Positions 2,986 through 24,224 are shown, counted from the stretch's first letter. The stretch is 24,224 nucleotides of DNA from a virus (IMGVR_UViG_2548876940_000013:1-24224); one strand, 5' to 3'. Notes: generated by a model not told the origin, from the letters alone. Numbers and translations: made by a program.

Positions 2986-3124
2986 TTGTAGTTATCTCTC
3001 ACCTCGCTGATACAGCAGGTGCAAATTGAGGGAACATCATGTACAGCAAATTAGAAGCGGAAACGTCAAAGAAGCCGAACCAATGGATAACTGCGAAATA
3101 GACCAGGACCAACGAATCCCCAGC

Positions 3125-3160
3125 CCCAGAAACGACAAAACCCGCTCGACGGCGGGTTTA
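3125..3160 (-). terminator. tR-prime-like terminator of the short late leader transcript
   Basis: 8-bp GC stem aaacccgc / gcgggttt (3138-3145 / 3152-3159) with a 6-nt loop, followed on the - strand by the T-rich tgtcgtttctgg. Lies between the Q-proximal cargo and the holin, as in lambda pR-prime/tR-prime. Confidence 0.4.
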
Positions 3161-3169
3161 AGCTGTGTG

Positions 3170-3270
3170 GCGAAGTAACCACTCTTAACACGATACAATA
3201 ATTTTTGCGTACGCGTTAGCGTTTTTGTAAGATTAACAAATAAATCGAAAAATCATAATCGGATGATTTC
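3170..3270. promoter_or_regulatory. AT-rich divergent control region: candidate late promoter/Q-utilisation site (- strand) and promoter of the cargo cassette (+ strand)
   Basis: Roughly 100 bp AT-rich, non-coding on both strands, located between the tR-prime-like hairpin and the start of the 3271 gene. No confident -35/-10 assignment. Confidence 0.3.
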
Positions 3271-4293
3271 ATGGCAAAATTAAATGCTAGCGAAAGACTC
3301 GTTACTCATCATAGTCTGACCATTGACACAAAGTTTAGAACCAAGGCAACACAAGAGGTAAAAGCCCAGTGTATATGTCCTGTTCCGGAAATGTACATGC
3401 TTGCCCCATTGATTGTTAAACAAAAGGGACTCGTTCATTCATATGATTCTGGGAATATTGTAGTTACTCTCCAAGATGTACAACTTTATCCTTTACTTCC
3501 AGATAACTCACCCACGCATATTGTCCTTCTTATTAATAGTGTTGATAAAAATGGAAGTACTACCGTTGTAAAAAATATAAATACTAATGAACGCGTTGAA
3601 ATCCAACCAAAATATGAACAAGGTGAAGGCTATGAAGTTTCTACCTATGTTGTCATATCATTAAATGGAAATAAAAGAACCTATGATATGATTTGTACAT
3701 CTACCCCAGGTGTATCTACGGCCCGGTTAAATAGTTTTTTAGACAAAATTCTCTTTGAAGTGGCGAAAGACAATGAAGACTTATTTACCGCAAAACATCC
3801 AACTAACGTTATTTCTGCAACATCAAAAAAAGAAGTAAAAATACGATACAAACCAATATTTGAATTTACAGGAATGTTAGACAAGGAGCTTTTTAATAAA
3901 ATAAGCCAAAAAGGATTATCAGATGTCATATTAGTCAAGGATCAATTCGGAACAATTAATGCTCCTGATGTTAATTCACCTTACATTCCGACTGAAAGTA
4001 CATTAAAATTACTTCCAAATCATGGTGACAATGTTATTGGATGGATTAAAAATGTAGCATCTCATTTCAATAAAAAAATGAATGGTGGTTATGATAAATT
4101 AAAGGTTAAATTCCAAGATCCTGAAACAAATAAACCAAGGCAGGTTGATTTCAAAACCTCAAACATCAATCTTAATAATTTAGAAAAAACATTTATTAAG
4201 AAAAGCATTATCGATAACTTTAATTCGCGCCTGAAGGATTCATATGTTAAAATTGAACTAGAGTTTGTTGTGAAAATGATAGATTTGATGTGA
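3271..4293 (+). CDS. Hypothetical 340-aa soluble protein, first gene of the Q-lysis cargo cassette (candidate defence/abortive-infection component)
   Basis: Clean 340-aa ORF with ATG start, visibly AT-rich, antisense to the late operon. Lys/Asn-rich; no motif I recognise. Confidence 0.6.
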   Translation: MAKLNASERLVTHHSLTIDTKFRTKATQEVKAQCICPVPEMYMLAPLIVKQKGLVHSYDSGNIVVTLQDVQLYPLLPDNSPTHIVLLINSVDKNGSTTVVKNINTNERVEIQPKYEQGEGYEVSTYVVISLNGNKRTYDMICTSTPGVSTARLNSFLDKILFEVAKDNEDLFTAKHPTNVISATSKKEVKIRYKPIFEFTGMLDKELFNKISQKGLSDVILVKDQFGTINAPDVNSPYIPTESTLKLLPNHGDNVIGWIKNVASHFNKKMNGGYDKLKVKFQDPETNKPRQVDFKTSNINLNNLEKTFIKKSIIDNFNSRLKDSYVKIELEFVVKMIDLM

Positions 4294-4300
4294 GGTTATT

Positions 4301-4885
4301 ATGCCAATACTTTCAGTTTTCTCTCATCTAGGCAAGCCGTTTGGATATCTTTTTATTAAAGGTATTAGCGGCAAAGCTGCATATGATTGGGTAGCACCAA
4401 TTCTACTTACTTCTATCACAGCAGTACTTTTCATTCTATTAAAAATCCCTGTCAAAGATTTATTTGATGACAATGGTTTCATTAAATCAATCGTTTCATT
4501 TATCTCTAACCTACCAGGGTTTTATATTGCCGCTCTGGCCGCCATAGCAACTTTCAATAGAGCTGAGATTGATTTACCATTGATTAGCAATGAAAGAAAT
4601 GCCTCTATTGAAATAAAAGTAACAAAAGAAAATGGAAAAGTAGTAAATTCAGAGGAGGTTCTGACCAGACGATTATTTCTTTGCATGCTATTCTCTTTTT
4701 TAACAGCATTAAGCATTGTTATAATAATACTTAATGCTATATTTTCACCATTAATCAATGTCTATCAAAACAGTATTGTTTTAATGGTTTATACTGTTGT
4801 ATTTACTTTCCTAGTTTGGCAACTCTTAGTATCAACTTTCTTTGGATTATATTATCTCGGAAACAGAATTCATATGAATTATTAA
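4301..4885 (+). CDS. Hypothetical 194-aa integral membrane protein (about four TM helices), second gene of the cargo cassette
   Basis: ATG 7 nt after the stop of the upstream gene, with the SD gagg overlapping that stop (operon). Four hydrophobic segments, roughly aa 30-50, 60-85, 125-148 and 159-186. Confidence 0.6.
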   Translation: MPILSVFSHLGKPFGYLFIKGISGKAAYDWVAPILLTSITAVLFILLKIPVKDLFDDNGFIKSIVSFISNLPGFYIAALAAIATFNRAEIDLPLISNERNASIEIKVTKENGKVVNSEEVLTRRLFLCMLFSFLTALSIVIIILNAIFSPLINVYQNSIVLMVYTVVFTFLVWQLLVSTFFGLYYLGNRIHMNY

Positions 4886-4906
4886 GCCCTACAGGGGCTT
4901 AATAAT
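4879..4906. other. Perfect 11-bp stem hairpin spanning the convergent stop codons of the cargo cassette and Q
   Basis: ttattaagccc-taca-gggcttaataa. The stops of the 4301-4885 gene (+) and of Q (-) lie 3 nt apart inside this structure. No U-tract on either side. Confidence 0.4.
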
Positions 4907-5239
4907 CAACAAAATACCTTCAATCACTCCTATTGCTGCTTGAAGTTGTTTTCTGATTGACCCGTCAGAGCATTTCCGTTTCTTTGCTATTGAACGGAGT
5001 GAAATACCGATAACAAAGTGAGCAATGATCAGTTCATATTCTTCTGGCTTATATTTCCGCAATCGCGCAACACAGCTGTCAATCATGATTCCTTCATCAT
5101 CATCGCATTGTTGGCGTATTTTCTTTCCATGAGGTAGTAAACCTTTAAACCCTGCAGCAACAGGCTGCCAGTCCACACCACTGTTATCTGCTGCAGCCCA
5201 TGCTCCCCAGCGGTCCAATACTTCATACATATCACGCAT
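4889..5239 (-). CDS. Late-gene antitermination protein Q (QuuD-like)
   Basis: Motifs VLDRWGAWAA, GFKGL and a Cys/His-rich centre, as recalled for DLP12-type Q. Track start is TTG at 5254; the ATG at 5239 has the SD ggagaagg. Located directly upstream of the lysis cassette. Confidence 0.7.
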   Translation of the reverse strand: MRDMYEVLDRWGAWAAADNSGVDWQPVAAGFKGLLPHGKKIRQQCDDDEGIMIDSCVARLRKYKPEEYELIIAHFVIGISLRSIAKKRKCSDGSIRKQLQAAIGVIEGILLIIKPL

Positions 5240-10535: not shown

Positions 10536-11222
10536 GTGAAAACACTGGCAGAACGATTAAAGATAGGTAGAGAGAAAGCTGGCATGAGCCAAGCTCAACT
10601 AGCTGAAAAAATTGGACTTTCACAACAATCTGTAGCCAAAATAGAGAATGGCGAAACTCTACAACCGCGCAAAATTAAAGAAATTGCAAAAGTTTTAGGT
10701 GTATCACAAAAGTGGTTACAACTTGGTATTGAAGACAACGCATCCATACCTGATCTTGTTGTAAAAGAAGCAGAAAGCACCGCATTAGACCCCGATATTT
10801 TCGTAAACATTCCTGTTTTAGATGTCGAGTTATCGGCAGGTAACGGATGTCTGGCTGAAATAGTTGAATCAGCTATTGACTGGTTTCCGTTAAGAAGAGC
10901 AGATTTGAGAAAATCTGGCGTATGTGCATCTAATGCCAAGATCGTACAAATATGGGGGAACAGTTTATTACCGGTTCTCAATAATGGAGATCTTGTTGCC
11001 GTTGATATTTCTCAAACCGTTCCTATTCGTGATGGCGATCTTTATGCCGTACGAGATGGTGTATTGCTAAGGGTTAAAATACTTATCAACTTACCTGACG
11101 GTGGCTTGATTCTTAGAAGCTTCAACAAAGATGAGTACCCAGATGAAATACTCACCTTTGAAGATAGACGAGCCAGAATTCATGTTATAGGTAGGGTATT
11201 CTGGTCATCGCGAACTTGGTAA
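10536..11222 (+). CDS. CI-like prophage repressor (XRE-type HTH plus S24 LexA-like peptidase domain)
   Basis: N-terminal HTH (MSQAQLAEKIGLSQQSVAKIENGE) and C-terminal S24 fold with Ser (GNSLLPV) and Lys (LRVKIL) in the expected places. GTG start with SD agagaggg. Confidence 0.85.
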   Translation: MKTLAERLKIGREKAGMSQAQLAEKIGLSQQSVAKIENGETLQPRKIKEIAKVLGVSQKWLQLGIEDNASIPDLVVKEAESTALDPDIFVNIPVLDVELSAGNGCLAEIVESAIDWFPLRRADLRKSGVCASNAKIVQIWGNSLLPVLNNGDLVAVDISQTVPIRDGDLYAVRDGVLLRVKILINLPDGGLILRSFNKDEYPDEILTFEDRRARIHVIGRVFWSSRTW

Positions 11223-12095
11223 TGCATCGAAAAGCATTTCTTCAGAAATAATTTTAAGTTTTGCACCATTATCATCCCTATAAGATATAGCCTTTTCGAT
11301 CTTCCTTCCGTGACTAGAGAATTTCCAATCACGGGAGGAAAGCGTCCCAATTACTAAAAAATCCAACTTTTGAGTAATTCCACTACTGATGTTCCCACCA
11401 GCATTTTTAATCAAATTTTCAACTACGGCTCTCTTTCCTGCAACAAAAGTGCCTGTAAGACAATAGGTTTTACCCTCTAACTCTATCGAAGCCCCTACAT
11501 CAATAGGCAGCCTGGTCGCCAAACCATCCACCACCCCACTTTCCAAGTCACATCCTGTGAAGTCTACTAATGCCTTATGTAGAGTTAAACTCTCATCTTC
11601 AGTAATAACACCATCTTTAAGAATTTCCTTTACAAGTGCATAAAGTTTTTTTCCTGGGTAGTTGTTCTTCAAAGCTCCATTTTGCTCAAGCCACCAATTA
11701 AGATATCTTATTTCTTCTTGAGTTAAGTTCCGATCAGCAATTAATCCTTTACATAGTCCATTAAGTAAATGGACATCTACATCCTTGGAGTAAAAATCAA
11801 TTTCAGGGATATCAAGAATTTCCCTCTGTATTTGGAGAAGACTATTTTTAAGGTCATCACGTTCTTCTGATGTGATTATTCCATCCACAAGAATATCCGA
11901 CACCCGTGCAGATAGACTTTTTATAACTCCATTATTGATAATCTGCTTTGCTTCAAGTAACCATGTATCTAAGTAAAGAACCTCCTCTTCACGGACAACT
12001 CCATCTGCAATGATTCCATCAATGATGCTAATCAAGTTAGCAAATAACTTGTCCCGGTTCTGTGTGTAATTAAAAGCGTAAAGCGCGTCTTCCAT
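11205..12095 (-). CDS. TerB-like-repeat / BRCT-domain protein in the immunity region (candidate exclusion/defence factor)
   Basis: C-terminal BRCT signature GKTYCLTGTFVAGKRAVVENLIKNAGGNISSGITQKLDFLVIGT...KLKIISEEMLFDAL, as in the LigA BRCT. N-terminus has four repeats of about 38 aa with the motif [IL]xDG[IV][IV]TxEE. ATG at 12095 with SD aaggagg; track start is GTG 12125. Confidence 0.7.
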   Translation of the reverse strand: MEDALYAFNYTQNRDKLFANLISIIDGIIADGVVREEEVLYLDTWLLEAKQIINNGVIKSLSARVSDILVDGIITSEERDDLKNSLLQIQREILDIPEIDFYSKDVDVHLLNGLCKGLIADRNLTQEEIRYLNWWLEQNGALKNNYPGKKLYALVKEILKDGVITEDESLTLHKALVDFTGCDLESGVVDGLATRLPIDVGASIELEGKTYCLTGTFVAGKRAVVENLIKNAGGNISSGITQKLDFLVIGTLSSRDWKFSSHGRKIEKAISYRDDNGAKLKIISEEMLFDALPSSR

Positions 12096-12300
12096 ACAAC
12101 CTCCTTTTTTTGATAATCCTTGCACTCCTTGGCTACTCGTTCAAACCACATAAAGTTGTTGACAACATTCAAAACCACAACTAAATTACAACTTAAAGGT
12201 GTTAAGACAACGAACAGGCAGGACGCCCACGAAGTAGCCGCTTGGGGCATATGAAGTCCAGGATGATTCGTTGAGTCATGTTGTGCCACTAGGCACTCAT
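12096..12300. promoter_or_regulatory. OL-like operator/promoter region (candidate pL driving + strand early-left genes, with a divergent promoter for the BRCT gene)
   Basis: Contains the near-palindrome aaagttgttgacaac and the motif acaacttaaaggtgtt, which match the units in the cro/cI spacer. Confidence 0.4.
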
Positions 12301-15113: not shown

Positions 15114-15168
15114 CAGCGAAATTAACTAGTGAAATAGTTTTGTAGCAAAAGAAATGAGGTTATCAAAA

Positions 15169-15414
15169 ATGCTTCAAATGCTGACACTTGAGGAATGGGC
15201 TGCGGAAAAATTTAGGAGTAATCCTCCAAGTGTGTCCACATTGCGCCGTTATGCTAAGCAGAATTTATTTTGTCCACCGGCAATGAAACAAGGTCGACTA
15301 TGGCGAGTGCGTGAGGACGCAGAGTTAGTTGGGGAATTAGTTACCCCTGTCATCAAGAAAAGTGATTCTATTATTCTACAAAGGATTTTAAGTAATGGCA
15401 GCCAGACCACGTAA
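15169..15414 (+). CDS. xis: Excisionase (lambda Xis-like)
   Basis: MLTLEEWAAEKFRSNPPSVSTLRRYAKQNLFCPPAMKQGRLWRVRED parallels lambda Xis (MYLTLQEWNARQRRPRSLETVRRWVRECRIFPPPVKDGREY). The 3-prime end overlaps the int start. Start could be 15154, 15169 or 15178. Confidence 0.75.
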   Translation: MLQMLTLEEWAAEKFRSNPPSVSTLRRYAKQNLFCPPAMKQGRLWRVREDAELVGELVTPVIKKSDSIILQRILSNGSQTT

Positions 15415-16522
15415 AAATAATGTTTCAGTCCCGAACTTGTATCCGCTCTATAGCAGAAAAGTAAATAAAGTCTATTGGCGATATAAGCATCCAGTGACCG
15501 GGAAGTTTCATTCTTTGGGCACAAACGAAGCTGAAGCCATTGCCATTGCCACTGAGGCCAATACACGCCTGGCTGAGCAAAGAACCCGGCAGATTCTGGC
15601 TATCAGTGACAGGATCGCAACCAACAAAGGAAAAGCAATCACAACGTCAACCTGGTTAGATCGCTATCAAGCAATCCAGGATGACAGACTGAAAAGTGGC
15701 GATATAAAGCTCAACACCTATAAACAGAAAGCCAAACCAGTATCCTTGCTCAGGGAACGAGCAGGACTGAAGTTAATTTCAGCCGTTGATGTCAGGGATA
15801 TAGCCCAGTTGCTTGACGAGTATATCGCCGCCGGACAGCCGAGAATGGCGCAAGTAGTTCGCTCCGTCCTGATTGATGTTTTCAAAGAGGCACAGCACTA
15901 CGGAGAAGTACCTCCTGGCTATAACCCGGCATTAGCTACTAAACAGCCAAGAAGAAAAATTACACGACAGCGGCTAAGTCTTGAAGAATGGCAAAAAATC
16001 TTTGATATCGCAGATGCCAGTCATCGCTACATGGGAAATGCCATGCTGCTAGCATTGGTTACTGGTCAGCGGTTAGGTGATATTTCACGTATGAAATTTA
16101 GCGATATTTGGGATGATCATCTTCACGTCATCCAGGAAAAAACCGGGAGCAAAATCGCCATCCCGCTTTCTCTTCGTCTCAACGCGATTAACTGGAGTTT
16201 ACGCGATGTAGTCGCCCGCTGCCGTGACTATGCAGTCAGCCCATACCTTGTACATTTTTTCCGTACTACTTCACAAGCTGAACGTGGCGCGCAGGTTAAA
16301 TCCAATACATTGACCATGAATTTCAGTAAAGCGAGGGATTTAGCAGGAATTGACTGGGGTGATGGCTCACCCGCAACATTCCATGAACAAAGGTCTTTAT
16401 CTGAACGTCTGTACAAAGAACAGGGGTTAGACACACAAAAACTGCTTGGTCATAAAACGCAACAACAAACCGATCGTTATCATGACGATCGCGGCAAAGG
16501 ATGGAGCAAAGTAGCGTTGTGA
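15395..16522 (+). CDS. int: Lambda-family tyrosine integrase
   Basis: 375 aa collinear with lambda Int: arm-binding N-terminus (NLYPLYSRKVNKVYWRY), ALVTGQRLGDISRMKFSDI, KTGSKIAIPLS, and the C-terminal HEQRSLSERLY...LLGHK...YHDDRG with the catalytic Tyr region. Confidence 0.95.
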   Translation: MAARPRKNNVSVPNLYPLYSRKVNKVYWRYKHPVTGKFHSLGTNEAEAIAIATEANTRLAEQRTRQILAISDRIATNKGKAITTSTWLDRYQAIQDDRLKSGDIKLNTYKQKAKPVSLLRERAGLKLISAVDVRDIAQLLDEYIAAGQPRMAQVVRSVLIDVFKEAQHYGEVPPGYNPALATKQPRRKITRQRLSLEEWQKIFDIADASHRYMGNAMLLALVTGQRLGDISRMKFSDIWDDHLHVIQEKTGSKIAIPLSLRLNAINWSLRDVVARCRDYAVSPYLVHFFRTTSQAERGAQVKSNTLTMNFSKARDLAGIDWGDGSPATFHEQRSLSERLYKEQGLDTQKLLGHKTQQQTDRYHDDRGKGWSKVAL

Positions 16523-16699
16523 AATTTTAAACGTCTCAACGCCACCTTGATTTTCTCACCACACATGAAAAAGAACCAAACAGCCCGCTTTGAGCGACAA
16601 GCGGAAATTAACATATCTGTTAAAGTGGCCAAATTTAGCTATCCACTACAGTCAGAATGTAGCATACAACATTCATTTTTTTGATAATGTCGCAATTTA

Positions 16700-16744: not shown

Positions 16745-19213
16745 CTATGATTTAGGTAAGTACTGTTTTAGTTTGTCAATAAATTGATCGATCTCTGCAG
16801 AAGTGAGTTCTGTTAGCTCACGTTTGCATATACCTACTGCCTCATCAAATCTCGAAGTTAAAGTTAACCAAATAGCTTTAAACCTTATAAAACTGCCGTA
16901 TGTTTGAGATTTAGGTGAATCAGTTTTTTCAAGAATTCCAATAGCATACTCTAATTTATCAATTCTTTTATATTGTATAGCTAGGTCACAGAGCGTTAAA
17001 ACAGGATATTTTATATCAGGAAAGTCCATGATCCCATTTTCAATTAGGGTAAATGATTCATCAACTTTATTATCAAACCTAGCAAGTGCCTTAGCTTTGG
17101 CGGAGCAATAAATTTCCTGTGCGCGTTGGGCTTGATTCGATTTTAGTCGTTCAAGTATATCCTCTACTAAACCTGGTTCAATATGTGAATCATCCTTGTA
17201 AAAAAGGCAGTTTAAATAATTATTAGCATTTATTGGATTATTTTTCTGCCTTTCATAAACTTCCTTCGCCAATCCCAAAGCAAGTTCGTGCTCATCATTC
17301 TGTAAATACAACAATACCAGTTCACTTTTTGAACGGTGGTCATTAGGTCTTTGCCTTAAAACTCGCTTATAGCTCTCAATTGCCCGAGAACGTTGGCGTG
17401 TTATTCTAAAATAAAAACCATGCAGGAATGAACTTTCTGGTTCAGGAACATCTCGTACCGCATTAAAAAACTCTCGATCATGCAGTCTTGCTAGAGACTG
17501 GCATTTCATAAATAATATGTGTTCTATAACATTTGAATGCATATATTGAGCATTTGAAAGAATCTGATCAGCTAATCTCACAGCTTCTTTATAGTTCGCA
17601 GATCCACCTTTTTCGTATAATGATCTTATTGTTTTTACAAAATATGAAGGAACTAACACTCGACTATCTATATCTTTACCGGTTTTTATAGCCTCCTGAA
17701 TGGAGAAAATATATTCCGAAATATCCCTATTGTTGTCTGTATATTCTTCAATGAACTTCTTAATATGCTTACTCAAAACATCATCATATTCACTGGTGGT
17801 TCCAAACTTACTTCTTGATATGTAATCCTGTATTACTTGGTTTACCCTGATATAATCATTATTCACACCTAATTGATCACATACAGACATATTGATGAAG
17901 TTTTGCGTAATTGGATAAAACTCCACTTCATCTACTAATGAAAAAAGGAACTCATAGCTAATGAATTCAAATTTTGAAAGGAAATATAAAAAATCTAACT
18001 TACGCTGATCATGGGAAAAACTTTCAACTATTACTTTTGCCTTATCATCAGCATATTCTCTTATTAAATGTGAATCTTTTTTCACTGAATAAAGGTTCGT
18101 ATCCGATATACTATCCACGGCAAAAAGAACTTGCTCTGGATAACCCGAAAGTAGGTCTGAGAAAAAACGCAGATCTTCAGGGCATAAATCTAAACCTTTA
18201 TATGTTGCATATCTTTTCAAAAGCCCTCGTCTTTCTTGAGTATTCAATTCAGGAATTTCTTCAAAGTAATACTCTGGATTTCTATAAGAAAATGTTTTAT
18301 TACCTCTAAACTTAGATGCTATACAGAAAGTCAAGTGACCATAATGTTTAATATGATCTGTAATCCTTACAAACCAACTTACAATTGTACTATCAGGTTG
18401 AACTATAGCTCCTTTATCTTCAATTAGGATTCGTTCTTTTTCTTCTATAATTCCTTCTATAAGCTTTACCGCAATATTAACTTTATCACTTATTGAAGTG
18501 GTCATTAAATCATGAATTTTACCAATATCGCATAAGCCAAGATCATTTATTTTTAAGATAAAGTCTTCTATACTATCTGAAGACTCGATTTGTATTATAG
18601 GAAATTCATAAGACTCTCTTATAGCATTAGATTTTATAAGAGCGTTCTTCATAAAAGATTTACGGCCAATTGAATCCAAACCTGAAGCAATAAAAACTAC
18701 AGGAGGAGATTTATCAAAGTCATCAAAACGTTGCTCAACGTTAGTCGTTTTCTCATTTCTACCCACAAATATTTTTTGTCTTTCTTTCAATGCAGGATGG
18801 GTTTTAAATGCAATCTCTCGTAGTCGAGCATTAATTTTTCTAATTGCAACGTTAGGCTTCCGAATTGGCTGAATATTAAAACCTTCCTTCATCCAGGATG
18901 GGACCCTTGGATCTGTAAAAGTTATTTTGTCATCTATTATAATTGGATAAATACGTTGCAGATGACCATCCTCTACTTTTTTCTTTGCTAAGCGCATTTC
19001 CTCTTTAACCCAATCAGACTCTAATGCAGAATCAGAAAGAAATAAAACAAAAAGAGATGTATCATCTAGCCCCTTTAATATTTCCTCTGATGGGGACATG
19101 CCTTTTTCAAAAGTCTGCTCATCGAAAATTCTAGTTTCTTTGCGAAGCCCTGAAGCAACAACTCGTACATAGTCCTTGTCTTTTGAACTATGTGAAAGAA
19201 AACATTTTATCAT
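16745..19213 (-). CDS. TIR-domain protein with a central NTPase-like region and C-terminal TPR-like repeats (STAND/NLR-like antiviral candidate)
   Basis: N-terminal TIR motifs (CFLSHSSKDKDYV; LFVLFLSDSALESDWVKEE with a candidate catalytic Glu). Middle region with a degenerate P-loop (FIASGLDSIGRKS) and a Walker-B-like ERILIED about 75 aa later. C-terminal roughly 300 aa of helical TPR-like repeats. Visibly AT-rich; sits between int and the icd-derived arm. Confidence 0.8.
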   Translation of the reverse strand: MIKCFLSHSSKDKDYVRVVASGLRKETRIFDEQTFEKGMSPSEEILKGLDDTSLFVLFLSDSALESDWVKEEMRLAKKKVEDGHLQRIYPIIIDDKITFTDPRVPSWMKEGFNIQPIRKPNVAIRKINARLREIAFKTHPALKERQKIFVGRNEKTTNVEQRFDDFDKSPPVVFIASGLDSIGRKSFMKNALIKSNAIRESYEFPIIQIESSDSIEDFILKINDLGLCDIGKIHDLMTTSISDKVNIAVKLIEGIIEEKERILIEDKGAIVQPDSTIVSWFVRITDHIKHYGHLTFCIASKFRGNKTFSYRNPEYYFEEIPELNTQERRGLLKRYATYKGLDLCPEDLRFFSDLLSGYPEQVLFAVDSISDTNLYSVKKDSHLIREYADDKAKVIVESFSHDQRKLDFLYFLSKFEFISYEFLFSLVDEVEFYPITQNFINMSVCDQLGVNNDYIRVNQVIQDYISRSKFGTTSEYDDVLSKHIKKFIEEYTDNNRDISEYIFSIQEAIKTGKDIDSRVLVPSYFVKTIRSLYEKGGSANYKEAVRLADQILSNAQYMHSNVIEHILFMKCQSLARLHDREFFNAVRDVPEPESSFLHGFYFRITRQRSRAIESYKRVLRQRPNDHRSKSELVLLYLQNDEHELALGLAKEVYERQKNNPINANNYLNCLFYKDDSHIEPGLVEDILERLKSNQAQRAQEIYCSAKAKALARFDNKVDESFTLIENGIMDFPDIKYPVLTLCDLAIQYKRIDKLEYAIGILEKTDSPKSQTYGSFIRFKAIWLTLTSRFDEAVGICKRELTELTSAEIDQFIDKLKQYLPKS

Positions 19214-19747
19214 TTGAAGTCCTTTTTTTTCATTTTAGGGAGCAAATGCCATATTTGTACTTTACATCTTTCGAGAGCAGGCGAAAAGCTGTGTAACTTT
19301 CCCATATAATTCTGACACTTATAGTAAAAAATGTTTGTGAATATTGATCTTTATCACATATTCCCTGTTTCTTTGTTACTCACTTACTGCGAGCTTGTAT
19401 CTCGACGTATGGTTTTAGATTCTCATTTAGTTGCTAAAAATAGACTGAAGCAACTGTAACTTAGAGTGCGTACAGTCAAGAATCCCCGCTGGCGGGCAAC
19501 AACTTTTGACAACTCACTCCCATCACCAACTGACGGACCGGTTCCCGGTTGATTAACACATTGTGATGTCAGCAATCTCCGCTCACAGCACAAAGCAGCC
19601 AACTACAACGCCGTAAGGCAATTTTGAGCGAGGAGCGGAAGCTGGCAATAGAACTACCATCTGACCGACCAACCTACCCCGAACTACCAGGGGGTTTTGA
19701 TAACTTATTTTGATAAAATTTTGATAACCGTTAGCAGGCTAACAAAA

Positions 19748-19780
19748 AACAACGGGCGTGTTATACGCCCGTTATAATAT
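19748..19780 (-). terminator. Rho-independent terminator of the icd 3-prime arm
   Basis: Stem aacgggcg / cgcccgtt with a 7-nt loop, followed on the - strand by gttttttgtt, beginning about 17 nt after the icd-fragment stop. Confidence 0.6.
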
Positions 19781-19796
19781 TTAACACATGTGGTAA

Positions 19797-19958
19797 TTAC
19801 ATATTTTCGATGATCGCGTCACCAAACTCTGAACATTTCAGCAGCTTAGCGCCTTCCATCAGACGTTCGAAGTCATAGGTTACGGTCTTCGCGTTGATTG
19901 CGCCTTCCATACCTTTAACAATCAGGTCTGCGGCTTCAGTCCAGCCCATATGGCGCAG
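19797..19958 (-). pseudogene. icd: Orphan 3-prime fragment of isocitrate dehydrogenase (icd): phage-borne attachment-site arm, as in phage 21/e14
   Basis: - strand translation [53 protein letters not shown] matches the Icd C-terminus as recalled. An in-frame stop lies immediately upstream (19980-19982) and no upstream frame encodes Icd. Confidence 0.8.
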
Positions 19959-19979
19959 CAGCATTAATATATGCCTCAT

Positions 19980-20405
19980 TCATAAAATGTAAAAGAGCAA
20001 GCTCGTACCAGTAGGGGGAAAATTCATTGACATGTCCTGTCAATACGTACAGAGCCCTGCCATGCTTGCCAGCACGTAACAATTCCGCCCCCAGTAACCA
20101 GCGTGTCCCCTGATTATTCTCAGGGTTATATGTTAGTATTTTATCAATGAGTATAACGGCATCCTGATGACGCTGTAAATGAACATTCGCCAGAATTGCA
20201 GCATAAAGAGCGCAAATGCATATGCCAGATGAGCGTGAATATCAATGATGTCAGGAGCATGTCTGGCAAGACGCCTGAGTTTGTTGACGTAATTTGTTTC
20301 GTTTATTTCATCACTATCGTATGCGTCAAGAGTTTTTTCAAATTCATCCCGAAATGGGCCAAGCCTGGTTTCAGGAAATAAGAAATACCCCTGGTTATTG
20401 TTCAC
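19980..20405 (-). pseudogene. Decayed ORF of unknown origin
   Basis: A 90-aa ORF (GTG start) and the following segments read protein-like in one - strand frame, interrupted by three stops before running into the icd fragment. Confidence 0.3.
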
Positions 20406-21113
20406 TTAAAAGTATAATTTGTAATTCAAATCCTGAGTCTGTAAAGCGGGGAGTAACATATTCTATTCTGAAGATAATAAAAGTCGTGATGCGATGTATC
20501 AAGCCCGGATTGTAATCCCAGATTAACATAGATCACAAAACAACTTATTCTTCACTAACGTCAAGATAAATATCGTTGTATGCCTTATCACGACTACGAA
20601 TACCAGCAAGATACAACTGACATACGGAAAGATACCACGTTTTTTACTCCCGAAAATAACGCTAAAAAGCTACTTCCCCATCGTTTGTCCTTAGTATTGT
20701 CAGCGCCAACAATGTGGGCTGACATGATAAAGCTGTCTAGGAAATTGTTCGCCTCCTCAGCGGACAATCCAAATGGTGATTGTCTCTGTTAAACGTTTAT
20801 TTTGAAGGTCACTGAATAAGGTGATGACGCTGTAGAATTTTTCACGTGCCACAGAATTTTGAACGCTTTCTCTTACAATATTTCAATGTTTCTATCAGTA
20901 TTCGCCGGAAGAAGTCATCGACCAAATCATCCCAGTCGTCTCGCACCACTGACCATTCATGGTTGACATGTGGTGGAAATCCGCTTCTACAGTAACCATT
21001 TTTTATTCGCAAAACCGAACACGCCATACGGATAGCTGTTAACTGGCATGCCGAGGCAGTCGTTATTTATATTTAGTTTTGTCAATAATCTTTATTTTTT
21101 GTAAAAGGCAAAT

Positions 21114-21132
21114 ATAAATTATTCTCATTATT
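21114..21132 (+). promoter_or_regulatory. Candidate Fur box upstream of the TonB-dependent receptor gene
   Basis: ataaattattctcattatt matches the 19-bp Fur consensus gataatgataatcattatc at 12 of 19 positions, best in the right half. About 50-70 bp upstream of the ATG. Confidence 0.3.
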
Positions 21133-21183
21133 GTTTGTATTTGTGTATTGTCTTGCCGGTTAACATGATCGGAGATTAGTAAT

Positions 21184-23274
21184 ATGCGAATAACCACTCT
21201 GGCTTCCGTAGTCATTCCCTGTCTCGGATTTTCAGCCAGCAGCATAGCTGCTGCAGAGGATGTGATGATTGTCTCGGCATCCGGCTATGAGAAAAAGCTG
21301 ACTAACGCAGCCGCCAGTGTTTCTGTGATTAGCCAGGAGGAATTGCAGTCCAGCCAGTACCACGATCTGGCGGAGGCTCTGAGATCAGTAGAGGGTGTGG
21401 ATGTTGAAAGTGGTACGGGTAAAACCGGAGGGCTGGAAATCAGCATCCGAGGAATGCCAGCCAGTTACACGCTGATACTGATTGATGGTGTTCGTCAGGG
21501 CGGAAGCAGTGACGTGACTCCCAACGGTTTTTCTGCCATGAATACCGGGTTCATGCCCCCTCTGGCCGCCATTGAGCGTATTGAGGTTATCAGAGGGCCG
21601 ATGTCCACACTGTATGGCTCTGATGCGATGGGCGGTGTGGTGAATATCATTACCAGAAAGAATGCAGACAAATGGCTCTCTTCCGTCAATGCAGGGCTGA
21701 ATCTGCAGGAAAGCAACAAATGGGGTAACAGCAGCCAGTTTAATTTCTGGAGCAGTGGTCCCCTTGTGGATGATTCTGTCAGCCTGCAGGTACGCGGTAG
21801 CACACAACAGCGTCAGGGTTCATCGGTCACATCACTGAGCGATACAGCAGCCACGCGTATTCCTTATCCCACGGAGTCACAGAATTATAATCTTGGTGCA
21901 CGTCTTGACTGGAAGGCGTCGGAGCAGGATGTGCTCTGGTTTGATATGGATACCACCCGGCAGCGTTATGATAACCGGGATGGGCAACTGGGGAGTCTGA
22001 CGGGGGGATATGACCGGACCCTGCGCTATGAGCGAAACAAAATTTCAGCTGGCTATGATCATACTTTCACCTTCGGAACATGGAAATCGTATCTGAACTG
22101 GAACGAGACAGAAAATAAAGGTCGTGAGCTTGTACGCAGTGTACTGAAGCGCGACAAATGGGGGCTTGCCGGTCAGCCGCGGGAGCTTAAGGAATCGAAC
22201 CTTATCCTGAATTCATTACTGCTTACCCCTCTGGGAGAATCTCATCTGGTTACGGTGGGGGGCGAGTTTCAGAGCTCGTCCATGAAAGACGGAGTTGTCC
22301 TTGCCAGCACAGGTGAAACTTTCCGGCAGAAAAGCTGGTCGGTATTTGCTGAGGATGAGTGGCATCTCACGGATGCACTTGCGCTGACTGCGGGCAGCCG
22401 CTATGAACATCATGAGCAATTCGGGGGACACTTCAGTCCGCGTGCATATCTGGTCTGGGATGTGGCAGATGCCTGGACGCTGAAAGGCGGTGTGACCACG
22501 GGATATAAGGCACCCAGAATGGGGCAGCTACATAAAGGGATTAGTGGTGTGTCCGGGCAGGGAAAAACAAATCTACTTGGTAACCCCGACCTGAAGCCGG
22601 AAGAGAGCGTCAGTTATGAGGCTGGGGTGTATTACGATAACCCCGCCGGTCTGAATGCCAATGTCACAGGTTTTATGACTGACTTCTCCAACAAGATTGT
22701 CTCTTATTCCATAAATGATAACACCAATAGCTATGTAAACAGCGGAAAGGCCCGGTTGCACGGTGTGGAATTTGCCGGCACATTGCCGCTGTGGTCAGAG
22801 GATGTCACGCTGTCACTGAATTACACCTGGACCCGAAGTGAACAACGTGATGGTGATAACAAAGGTGCGCCGCTGAGTTATACCCCTGAACACATGGTGA
22901 ATGCGAAACTGAACTGGCAGATCACCGAAGAGGTGGCATCATGGCTGGGTGCCCGTTATCGCGGGAAAACACCACGTTTCACCCAGAATTATTCGTCACT
23001 GAGCGCTGTACAGAAGAAAGTGTATGATGAGAAAGGAGAATACCTGAAAGCCTGGACGGTGGTGGATGCAGGTCTGTCGTGGAAGATGACGGATGCCCTG
23101 ACGCTGAATGCTGCGGTGAATAACCTGCTCAACAAGGATTACAGTGACGTGAGCCTGTACAGTGCCGGTAAGAGTACGCTGTATGCCGGTGATTACTTCC
23201 AGACGGGATCATCAACAACAGGATATGTGATACCTGAGCGAAATTACTGGATGTCGCTGAACTATCAGTTCTGA
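21184..23274 (+). CDS. iha: TonB-dependent outer-membrane siderophore receptor, Iha/IrgA-like
   Basis: 696 aa. Signal peptide, TonB-box-like EDVMIVSAS, plug and beta-barrel, C-terminal ...NYQF ending in Phe. SD ggag 9 nt upstream. Length and N-terminus match Iha as recalled; the symbol is tentative. Confidence 0.85.
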   Translation: MRITTLASVVIPCLGFSASSIAAAEDVMIVSASGYEKKLTNAAASVSVISQEELQSSQYHDLAEALRSVEGVDVESGTGKTGGLEISIRGMPASYTLILIDGVRQGGSSDVTPNGFSAMNTGFMPPLAAIERIEVIRGPMSTLYGSDAMGGVVNIITRKNADKWLSSVNAGLNLQESNKWGNSSQFNFWSSGPLVDDSVSLQVRGSTQQRQGSSVTSLSDTAATRIPYPTESQNYNLGARLDWKASEQDVLWFDMDTTRQRYDNRDGQLGSLTGGYDRTLRYERNKISAGYDHTFTFGTWKSYLNWNETENKGRELVRSVLKRDKWGLAGQPRELKESNLILNSLLLTPLGESHLVTVGGEFQSSSMKDGVVLASTGETFRQKSWSVFAEDEWHLTDALALTAGSRYEHHEQFGGHFSPRAYLVWDVADAWTLKGGVTTGYKAPRMGQLHKGISGVSGQGKTNLLGNPDLKPEESVSYEAGVYYDNPAGLNANVTGFMTDFSNKIVSYSINDNTNSYVNSGKARLHGVEFAGTLPLWSEDVTLSLNYTWTRSEQRDGDNKGAPLSYTPEHMVNAKLNWQITEEVASWLGARYRGKTPRFTQNYSSLSAVQKKVYDEKGEYLKAWTVVDAGLSWKMTDALTLNAAVNNLLNKDYSDVSLYSAGKSTLYAGDYFQTGSSTTGYVIPERNYWMSLNYQF

Positions 23275-23302
23275 TAATAACAAAACGCTATCACTGACGG
23301 TA

Positions 23303-23341
23303 GAATACGTTGCCACTGCAACTCCTGGCGGAACAGTGGCA
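23303..23341 (+). other. 12-bp stem hairpin downstream of the receptor gene
   Basis: acgttgccactg-caactcctggcggaa-cagtggcaacgt. No strong U-tract. Confidence 0.3.
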
Positions 23342-23491
23342 ACGTATTAGGTTAAGTGCATTTCCGATCCGCTAATGAGATTTCGTTACCAACAACTAAT
23401 ATCGTCACAGGAAATGCACGGATTATTTTTAACTTATCATTTACATACTTGTCCAGAGTGTAAGCGCACCGTGAAGGACGTGGGGTAAAAA

Positions 23492-23745
23492 TTAGTTTAC
23501 AGAGAGAGTGACGTTCCAGGGCAACAACTCTTTCATGCGGTTGGCAGGCCAGGTGTTGATTACACTGATCACGTGGCGTAGCCACGTTTCCGGCTCGATT
23601 CCGTTAAGTTTTGCAGCTACCGATCAGGCTGTACATCACTGCCGCACTATCGCTCGTCATCTCAAAGTCCGGTCTCGTCAGCAGGAAGGTATCATTCTCT
23701 CCCGCCATTTTTCCAGGGGCCCGGTCAGATAAGTCCCTTTGTCTA
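23492..23745 (-). pseudogene. Frameshifted C-terminal remnant of a transposase (IS66-family-like, tentative)
   Basis: Two adjacent - strand frames read ...DTFLLTRPDFEMTSDSAAVMYSLIGSCKT and NGIEPETWLRHVISVINTWPANRMKELLPWNV, joined only by a frameshift. The LLPWN-type C-terminus recalls IS66 transposases. Confidence 0.35.
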
Positions 23746-24224
23746 TCGCTGACTCCTGACTCATAACCCGGTTAGCAGAATGCAGGGTCACCACCTCGCC
23801 ACGACCGAATCCGAATAAGTCAATTGTACCTTCTCAATCGCCATTTTGTCACAATTAAGTTTGATAAAGCAGGTCACCTCTGCACTGAATCTGCTCCAGT
23901 GCCTCATTGGTTTCCGTCCCCCCCTTTAAACTGCCGGATAAGACTGCTGCACAGCGCCTTCCCCGGAATCAAATCACTTTCCCTGTCCGCCACAATCCGC
24001 TTCATGCCACCTCGTATTTTGTTTCAGAGACCGAAATCTGCCAGAAAGTGACTACGCGTGCACATATCGGTTTTCTGGGTTACATGCATCGTGTTATTTT
24101 CTGAAATGCAAAATAATAAAAAACAAGGACACATAATGAAGGATGAAATACACAGTACCAGCATCAACCGTAAGCGTACAGCGAGGGCCGTATTGACGGG
24201 GATGTGTTATTCAGCTGGCAGTGC

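Follow-up and report, generated by a model that had tools for sequence, protein, structure and literature searches.

A divergent TIR-NLR gene as probable single-gene anti-phage cargo between the integrase and the icd attachment arm of an e14-type prophage

Why should an e14-type prophage carry a long, AT-rich gene between its integrase gene and its attachment arm, and what does a degenerate P-loop in the encoded protein say about how that protein might work? Both questions are raised by a stretch of viral DNA of 24,224 nucleotides (IMGVR_UViG_2548876940_000013; the whole stretch is referred to here as the window), in which an earlier note, made from the letters alone, had proposed an antiviral protein with TIR, NTPase-like and TPR-like parts. 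The open reading frame lies exactly where the note had placed it, on the minus strand, and runs from an ATG start through 822 codons. Such a frame is not a chance occurrence, since the longest stop-free run in 2000 shuffles of the bases was 171 codons. The GC content of the gene is 0.333, compared to 0.477 for the prophage body and 0.463 for int, which bears out its marked AT-richness, and all three of the motifs quoted in the note are found on translation: SDWVKEE (with WVKEE at 18998-19012), GLDSIGRKS (18656-18682) and ILIED (18416-18430). An identical protein is already present in NCBI, where it is named as an E. coli 'toll/interleukin-1 receptor domain-containing protein', and the closest relatives come from Edwardsiella (93% identity) and from Vibrio, Aeromonas and Photobacterium (75-78%). 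The gene and its surroundings are as follows.

15154-15414, plus strand: xisE-like excisionase, an ORF convergent with the TIR-NLR gene
15395-16522, plus strand: intE-type integrase, an ORF likewise convergent with the TIR-NLR gene
16584-16605, minus strand: terminator-like hairpin, ~140 nt 3' of the TIR-NLR stop codon, from a consensus scan only
16745-19213, minus strand: TIR-NLR gene, 822 aa, predicted single-gene anti-phage system (ORF with full-length PADLOC and PDB matches)
19214-19796, minus strand: upstream region, presumed promoter, 583 bp from the start codon to the icd fragment
19749-19775: icd terminator hairpin, just downstream of the icd fragment
19797-19964, minus strand: icd 3' fragment of 168 bp, encoding the Icd C-terminus; the prophage-borne attachment arm
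21184-23274: iha (siderophore receptor/adhesin Iha), within an island at 19955-24224

The family of the protein was assigned from matches that run from end to end. Residues 1-820 align with positions 1-822 of the 824 in the PADLOC 'TIR-NLR' model PDLC03015 (E 4.2e-167), and residues 1-821 with positions 1-823 of chain A of PDB entry 9m0n (824 aa; E 4.6e-156). Both 9m0n_A and 9umd carry the PDB title 'Tetratricopeptide repeat protein'. Over the ~400 residues compared, 9m0n_A is identical to the pFR90 protein given in the supplement of Rousset et al. 2022 (PMC9122126). This 'TIR-NLR', a name under which DefenseFinder lists it too, originates from a P4-like satellite of Klebsiella pneumoniae SB5442; the gene alone, under its native promoter, gives E. 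coli broad phage protection that extends to P2-like phages (Rousset et al. 2022, PMC9122126). The same authors described the protein as TIR + STAND NTPase + TPR, with HHpred limits of 148-470 for the NTPase and 528-809 for the TPR part, and proposed a scheme in which infection is sensed by the TPRs, the NOD forms oligomers and NAD+ is broken down by the TIR (PMC9122126). The domain limits of the window protein agree with these. Because it matches both the PADLOC model and 9m0n, and with it the validated pFR90 protein, along its whole length, the window protein is on sequence grounds a distant member of a named, validated and structurally deposited TIR-NLR family. The layout proposed in the earlier note, a TIR followed by a STAND/NLR-like NTPase and TPRs, is correct, with Pfam TIR_2, PADLOC TIR-NLR, PDB 9m0n and Foldseek all in agreement, yet the family has been validated since 2022, its reference structure is deposited, and automated defence annotation would name the window gene 'TIR-NLR'. 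A literature search for 9m0n, 9umd or a mechanism paper on bacterial TIR-NLR returned nothing relevant.

The window and Klebsiella proteins are of near-equal length (822 and 824 aa), collinear throughout and built in the same TIR-NOD-TPR order; W68, E72, G178, G183, R184, D266 and the GxP motif are common to both, and both are encoded by single genes that travel as cargo beside the integrase of a mobile element. They differ in their sequences, with a global identity of 34.5% overall (53% in the TIR, ~35% in the NOD and 28% in the C-terminal part), in their P-loops, which read GRKS in the window and GRRS in Klebsiella, and in their carriers, a P4 satellite in Klebsiella and an e14-type prophage at icd here. 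Phage protection is on record for this 34.5%-identical Klebsiella homolog only, and family membership supports, by analogy, the antiviral role that had been suggested for the window protein.

We consider it probable that the gene encodes a divergent TIR-NLR, a single-gene anti-phage protein acting by abortive infection, and that it sits as exchangeable cargo between int and icd in an e14-type prophage. The trigger, oligomerisation, chemistry and outcome that we infer for it are these: the C-terminal TPR-like solenoid would recognise a phage-made protein, and this recognition would free the central STAND/NB-ARC-like NOD to oligomerise; oligomerisation would assemble the TIR domains, so that Glu72 active sites form and NAD+ is hydrolysed; and the infected cell would be arrested or die before progeny release, with the lysogen population and the prophage being protected. 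The domains and residues concerned are located as follows.

18794-19213, minus strand: TIR domain with linker helix, residues 1-140 (Pfam TIR_2, PDB matches, AF2 model)
18998-19000, minus strand: Glu72 codon, predicted catalytic Glu of a TIR NADase (alignment and conservation)
17789-18793, minus strand: STAND/NB-ARC-like NOD, residues 141-475, made up of NBD, helical domain and winged helix
18656-18682, minus strand: variant P-loop GLDSIGRKS, residues 178-186; Arg184 replaces the Walker A Lys and Lys185 the Ser/Thr (models and conservation)
18416-18430, minus strand: Walker B-like ILIED, residues 262-266, a beta strand in the model
16748-17788, minus strand: TPR-like all-helical solenoid, presumed sensor, residues 476-822 (AF2 model, profile and Foldseek matches)

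At the N-terminus, Pfam TIR_2 matches residues 5-95 (E 3.9e-14, 53.6 bits against a cut-off of 28), the AF2 model has a beta-alpha pattern, and the PDB sequence matches include the NADase TIRs Cat1 and AbTIR as well as PdTIR and TcpB. The earlier note had pointed to SDWVKEE as the site of a candidate catalytic Glu. The Glu is indeed there, and alignment to known NADase TIRs narrows it to the second of the two, with W68 and E72 pairing in pairwise alignments with the Trp and Glu of Cat1 'DWCWDE' and of AbTIR 'DWTNYE'. By AbTIR numbering, the Glu of the latter motif is presumably E208. The catalytic Glu of AbTIR is E208 (PMC10022894). Conservation was assessed over 120 homologs with 45-100% identity to the window protein; W68 and E72 are each retained in 120/120, whereas E71 is variable, and E72 is therefore the predicted catalytic residue.

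The central domain was classed by fold comparison only. At the sequence level it has no Pfam match at E <= 1, NACHT included, no match in NCBIfam, and none in the PDB at E <= 10 when searched with a 40-sequence profile. Its fold is that of a STAND NTPase (NOD), and the best Foldseek neighbours are of the NB-ARC/AP-ATPase and archaeal ATPase type, with NACHT proteins (NOD2, NLRPs) lower, so that the class, which the earlier note had left between NACHT, AAA+ and others, comes out as NB-ARC/AP-ATPase rather than NACHT. In both models a strand at 173-177 leads into the GLDSIGRKS loop and a helix starts from residue 184, which is the geometry of a Walker A. When the family profile was aligned with the Apaf-1 NOD (hhalign; Apaf-1 sequence checked against 1z6t), a weak local alignment (E 0.15, probability 0.4%) paired FVGR with FVTR and GLDSIGRK with GMAGCGKS, which is weakly consistent with the fold result and is no proof of it.

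Where a canonical Walker A would read GxxxxGK[ST], the window protein reads GLDSIGRKS, and this degeneracy had been taken as the sign of either a divergent NTPase or a sensor that has lost its ATPase activity. The loop is non-canonical as claimed, but it is not the result of decay, since the variant is fixed in the family (R184 in 119/120 and K185 in 118/120 homologs, beside G178 and G183 in 120/120). The Walker B-like ILIED, also proposed in the earlier note, forms a hydrophobic strand (262-266) ending in acidic residues, D266 being invariant (120/120) and position 265 occupied by Glu in 114/120 and Asp in 6/120. The homolog alignment also preserves a GxP motif (G357 in 120/120, P359 in 119/120) and an Arg close to the sensor-1 position, and 'RVNxVIRDY' resembles the NB-ARC 'MHDLIRD' with Asn in place of His (N458 in 109/120). 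To judge from this alignment, the variant pocket is under purifying selection. It is also compatible with function, because the validated Klebsiella protein still defends with the P-loop GLIGVGRRS, which is without any Lys. With Arg for the Walker A Lys, Lys for the Ser/Thr and Asn for the MHD-like His, ATP-dependent switching of the classical NLR kind is not something that can be assumed.

It is possible, although we lean against it, that the NOD is a pseudo-NTPase that does not hydrolyse ATP and perhaps does not bind it, and that a ligand-induced change of shape or a filament drives activation. Near-fixation of R184, K185 and N458 is in keeping with this, as are the Lys-free GRRS loop of a homolog that defends and the lack of an NTPase sequence match for the domain in Pfam or the PDB. 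Strong purifying selection on the pocket, however, argues that it is likely to bind a ligand. The Walker B acidic pair, the GxP motif and the Arg near sensor-1 have been kept, and an Arg is still able to contact phosphates.

The TPR-like helical C-terminus suggested in the earlier note is also seen. The AF2 model has ~22 paired helices in this part of the protein; Pfam TPR_16, TPR_7 and TPR_19 match weakly, below their cut-offs, at residues 605-660, profile matches are to consensus TPR proteins (CTPR) and MamA, and Foldseek returns the TPR superhelices of OGT, APC/C and BBS4. This is the part least conserved with respect to the Klebsiella homolog. As an extension of the TIR-NLR reading that we regard as doubtful, the proteins of E. 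coli, Edwardsiella, Vibrio and Aeromonas (75-93% identity within the group and ~35% to the Klebsiella clade) may form a separate TIR-NLR clade whose sensor responds to a different phage trigger, and in which the triple substitution in the pocket marks a STAND switch that either dispenses with ATP hydrolysis or uses a ligand other than ATP/ADP. If true, this would be a naturally 'K-to-R' NLR, yet an active one. The residual novelty of the locus lies in the divergent sensor clade and the fixed Arg-for-Lys nucleotide pocket. It would add a divergent clade to a validated bacterial NLR-like defence family, and the invariant Arg-for-Lys P-loop bears on the need for nucleotide hydrolysis in STAND/NLR activation, a point to which the deposited structures 9m0n/9umd probably hold the answer.

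The earlier note had compared the protein to Avs or bNACHT-type antiviral proteins. The general layout of a STAND/NLR-like protein with a TIR effector stood, but the kinship did not, since the family is TIR-NLR and neither an Avs nor a bNACHT model in PADLOC matched at E <= 1; the only models that did were TIR-NLR, PDC-S66, ThsB and SAVED_TIR. Avs (AVAST) proteins do share an N-terminal effector, a central STAND NOD, a C-terminal repeat sensor and single-gene organisation with the window protein, and they sense conserved phage proteins and oligomerise. Classical Avs proteins, however, have a canonical GK[ST] Walker A, in contrast to the GR[KR] of the TIR-NLR family, and Avs types 1-5 were rejected as an assignment for want of a profile match in PADLOC. 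A bNACHT assignment was likewise rejected, on the Pfam NACHT result and on the higher rank of the NB-ARC/AP-ATPase neighbours. Plant TIR-NLRs (RPP1, ROQ1, WRR4A), Apaf-1 and CED-4 have only 9-16% identity to the window protein. Plant TIR-NLRs and AP-ATPases carry LRR or WD40 repeats whereas the window protein carries TPRs, and relative to them the window protein has Arg for the P-loop Lys and Asn for the MHD His; the plant TIR-NLRs also differ in their EDS1-type downstream pathway, which the window protein is without.

As for the chemistry of the TIR, in the E. coli survey of Wang et al. 2024 all 12 of the 12 active TIR systems needed TIR active-site residues, and all 12, including single-protein TIR+TPR, sped culture death at an MOI of at least 2. 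TIR-II is the most widespread TIR system and is also found in phages (Wang et al. 2024); by description it is similar to the window protein, being an E. coli single-protein TIR + TPR system in which the TIR active site is needed. The literature searched gave no demonstration of NAD+ depletion, as opposed to production of a signal, for any TIR-NLR member. A TIR that, like the ThsB of Thoeris, produces a signalling nucleotide for an effector encoded elsewhere and does not deplete NAD+ is in our view improbable here. Many bacterial TIRs are generators of signals, and there are weak ThsB matches (Pfam ThsB_TIR E 0.013; PADLOC ThsB E 1e-5), which are confined to the TIR domain. Yet the Klebsiella homolog needed no second cloned gene to work in E. 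coli, and no partner gene is conserved in the different neighbourhoods described below, which makes Thoeris-like signalling unlikely. Thoeris itself was rejected as an assignment, the flanks of the gene being int and the icd fragment.

These flanks place the divergent TIR-NLR gene in the int-to-att slot that holds lit in e14, as the earlier note had proposed, with xis/int on one side and the 168-bp icd 3' fragment on the other. The xisE/intE annotation is common to sister prophages (Pfam Exc and Phage_integrase at locus L004). In K-12 the same icd-intE slot is occupied by ymfD, ymfE and lit, and e14 is annotated from 165 bp before the icd stop. Lit resembles the window protein in its slot, its type of prophage and its being an abortive-infection gene, but protein and mechanism are unrelated: Lit is a peptidase, and its cleavage of EF-Tu is triggered by the Gol peptide of T4. 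The claim that an attachment arm lies beside the gene holds in so far as the icd 3' fragment is there, but in the window this fragment is cut off from the remainder of icd and abuts the iha island. In the E. coli draft assembly GCA_040141345, by contrast, the identical protein is encoded between an intact 416-aa icd and int-xis; the window matches this assembly from the gene to ~19955, and its icd fragment is identical to the sequence that there completes the intact icd. The rest of the window, starting at ~19958, is a 100% match to an island that occurs in 74 complete E. coli genomes and carries iha together with IS66 remnants. The change-over coincides with the e14 attachment boundary, suggesting either a rearrangement or elements in tandem at icd.

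A decaying or silent passenger, non-functional in this strain, is very improbable. The region has been rearranged, with a truncated icd and an IS-rich iha island next to the locus, and a scan for promoters in the 583-bp upstream region gave 5 sites where shuffles would lead one to expect 12.3, so that with no enrichment over shuffles we assign no promoter. The ORF is nevertheless intact and 100% identical to the copy in the sister assembly, whose icd is intact; the upstream regions of 583 bp in the two differ at a single base, and every residue that is invariant in the family is present. A conserved housekeeping TPR scaffold unrelated to immunity, as the names 'tetratricopeptide repeat protein' or 'PilF' given to homologs in some sources might suggest, is hardly credible and was rejected on distribution, since the AT-rich gene, whose homolog is validated as a defence gene, occurs in only 4/5426 complete E. 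coli genomes and always on mobile elements.

These four copies, at 92% nucleotide identity, lie in a different integrative island. The homologs in other genera have neighbours of their own: HipA and a type I R-M system in Vibrio, a prophage repressor in Edwardsiella, and IS and integrase genes in Pseudomonas. Over six contexts, including these three genera and two contexts in E. coli, no neighbour is conserved, and we therefore regard the TIR-NLR as a stand-alone, horizontally mobile cargo gene, a single-gene system with no conserved partner. The 92% copy in E. coli 47-1826 (L001, 1-791) sits in a CP4-like integrative island with YeeU/CbtA toxin-antitoxin, antirestriction and DUF932 genes; this island also encodes a second, separate TIR-domain protein ~8 kb away, a GIY-YIG nuclease and a restriction endonuclease.

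Sister prophages share ~95-97% of the backbone with the window and carry other cargo in the icd-intE slot (L003, 19875-21961; L006, 2390-4717; L008, 5644-8115; L009, 2402-5257). In G47-1 and XH988 the slot holds a hypothetical protein and an AAA ATPase, the latter matching the PADLOC AriA, PD-T4-4_A, NsnB and GajA models (E 9e-27 for the AriA/PD-T4-4_A/GajA types). The slot of PS1Thumoskin9 holds a HEPN/Toprim-associated protein, that of NIST0056 hypothetical proteins, and that of OkiPb01675 a 775-aa TPR protein with weak matches to PDC-M34B and mad8; several of these slot sets had no PADLOC match. The icd-intE slot of e14-type prophages thus behaves like an exchange site for defence cargo, which is swapped between lit in K-12, the TIR-NLR here, and an AriA/GajA-like ATPase pair and others elsewhere. 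The 775-aa TPR protein of OkiPb01675 was considered separately as a relative of the window protein with another effector, and was rejected as it has no significant similarity.

Two further observations concern other parts of the window. In an AT-rich block at 3000-5000 (GC 0.34), two adjacent and co-oriented ORFs of 340 aa and 194 aa (3271-4885, plus strand) are full-length matches to the two components of the PADLOC candidate system PDC-M53 (A, E 2e-32; B, E 2e-54), and they belong to no Pfam family; given these matches, the prophage seems to carry a second candidate defence cargo. On the minus strand at 11205-12125, adjoining the prophage repressor region, a protein of 306 aa carries a BRCT domain at its C-terminus (Pfam E 1e-6), weakly matches the PADLOC candidate PDC-S48 (E 1e-6) and is conserved in sister e14-type prophages.
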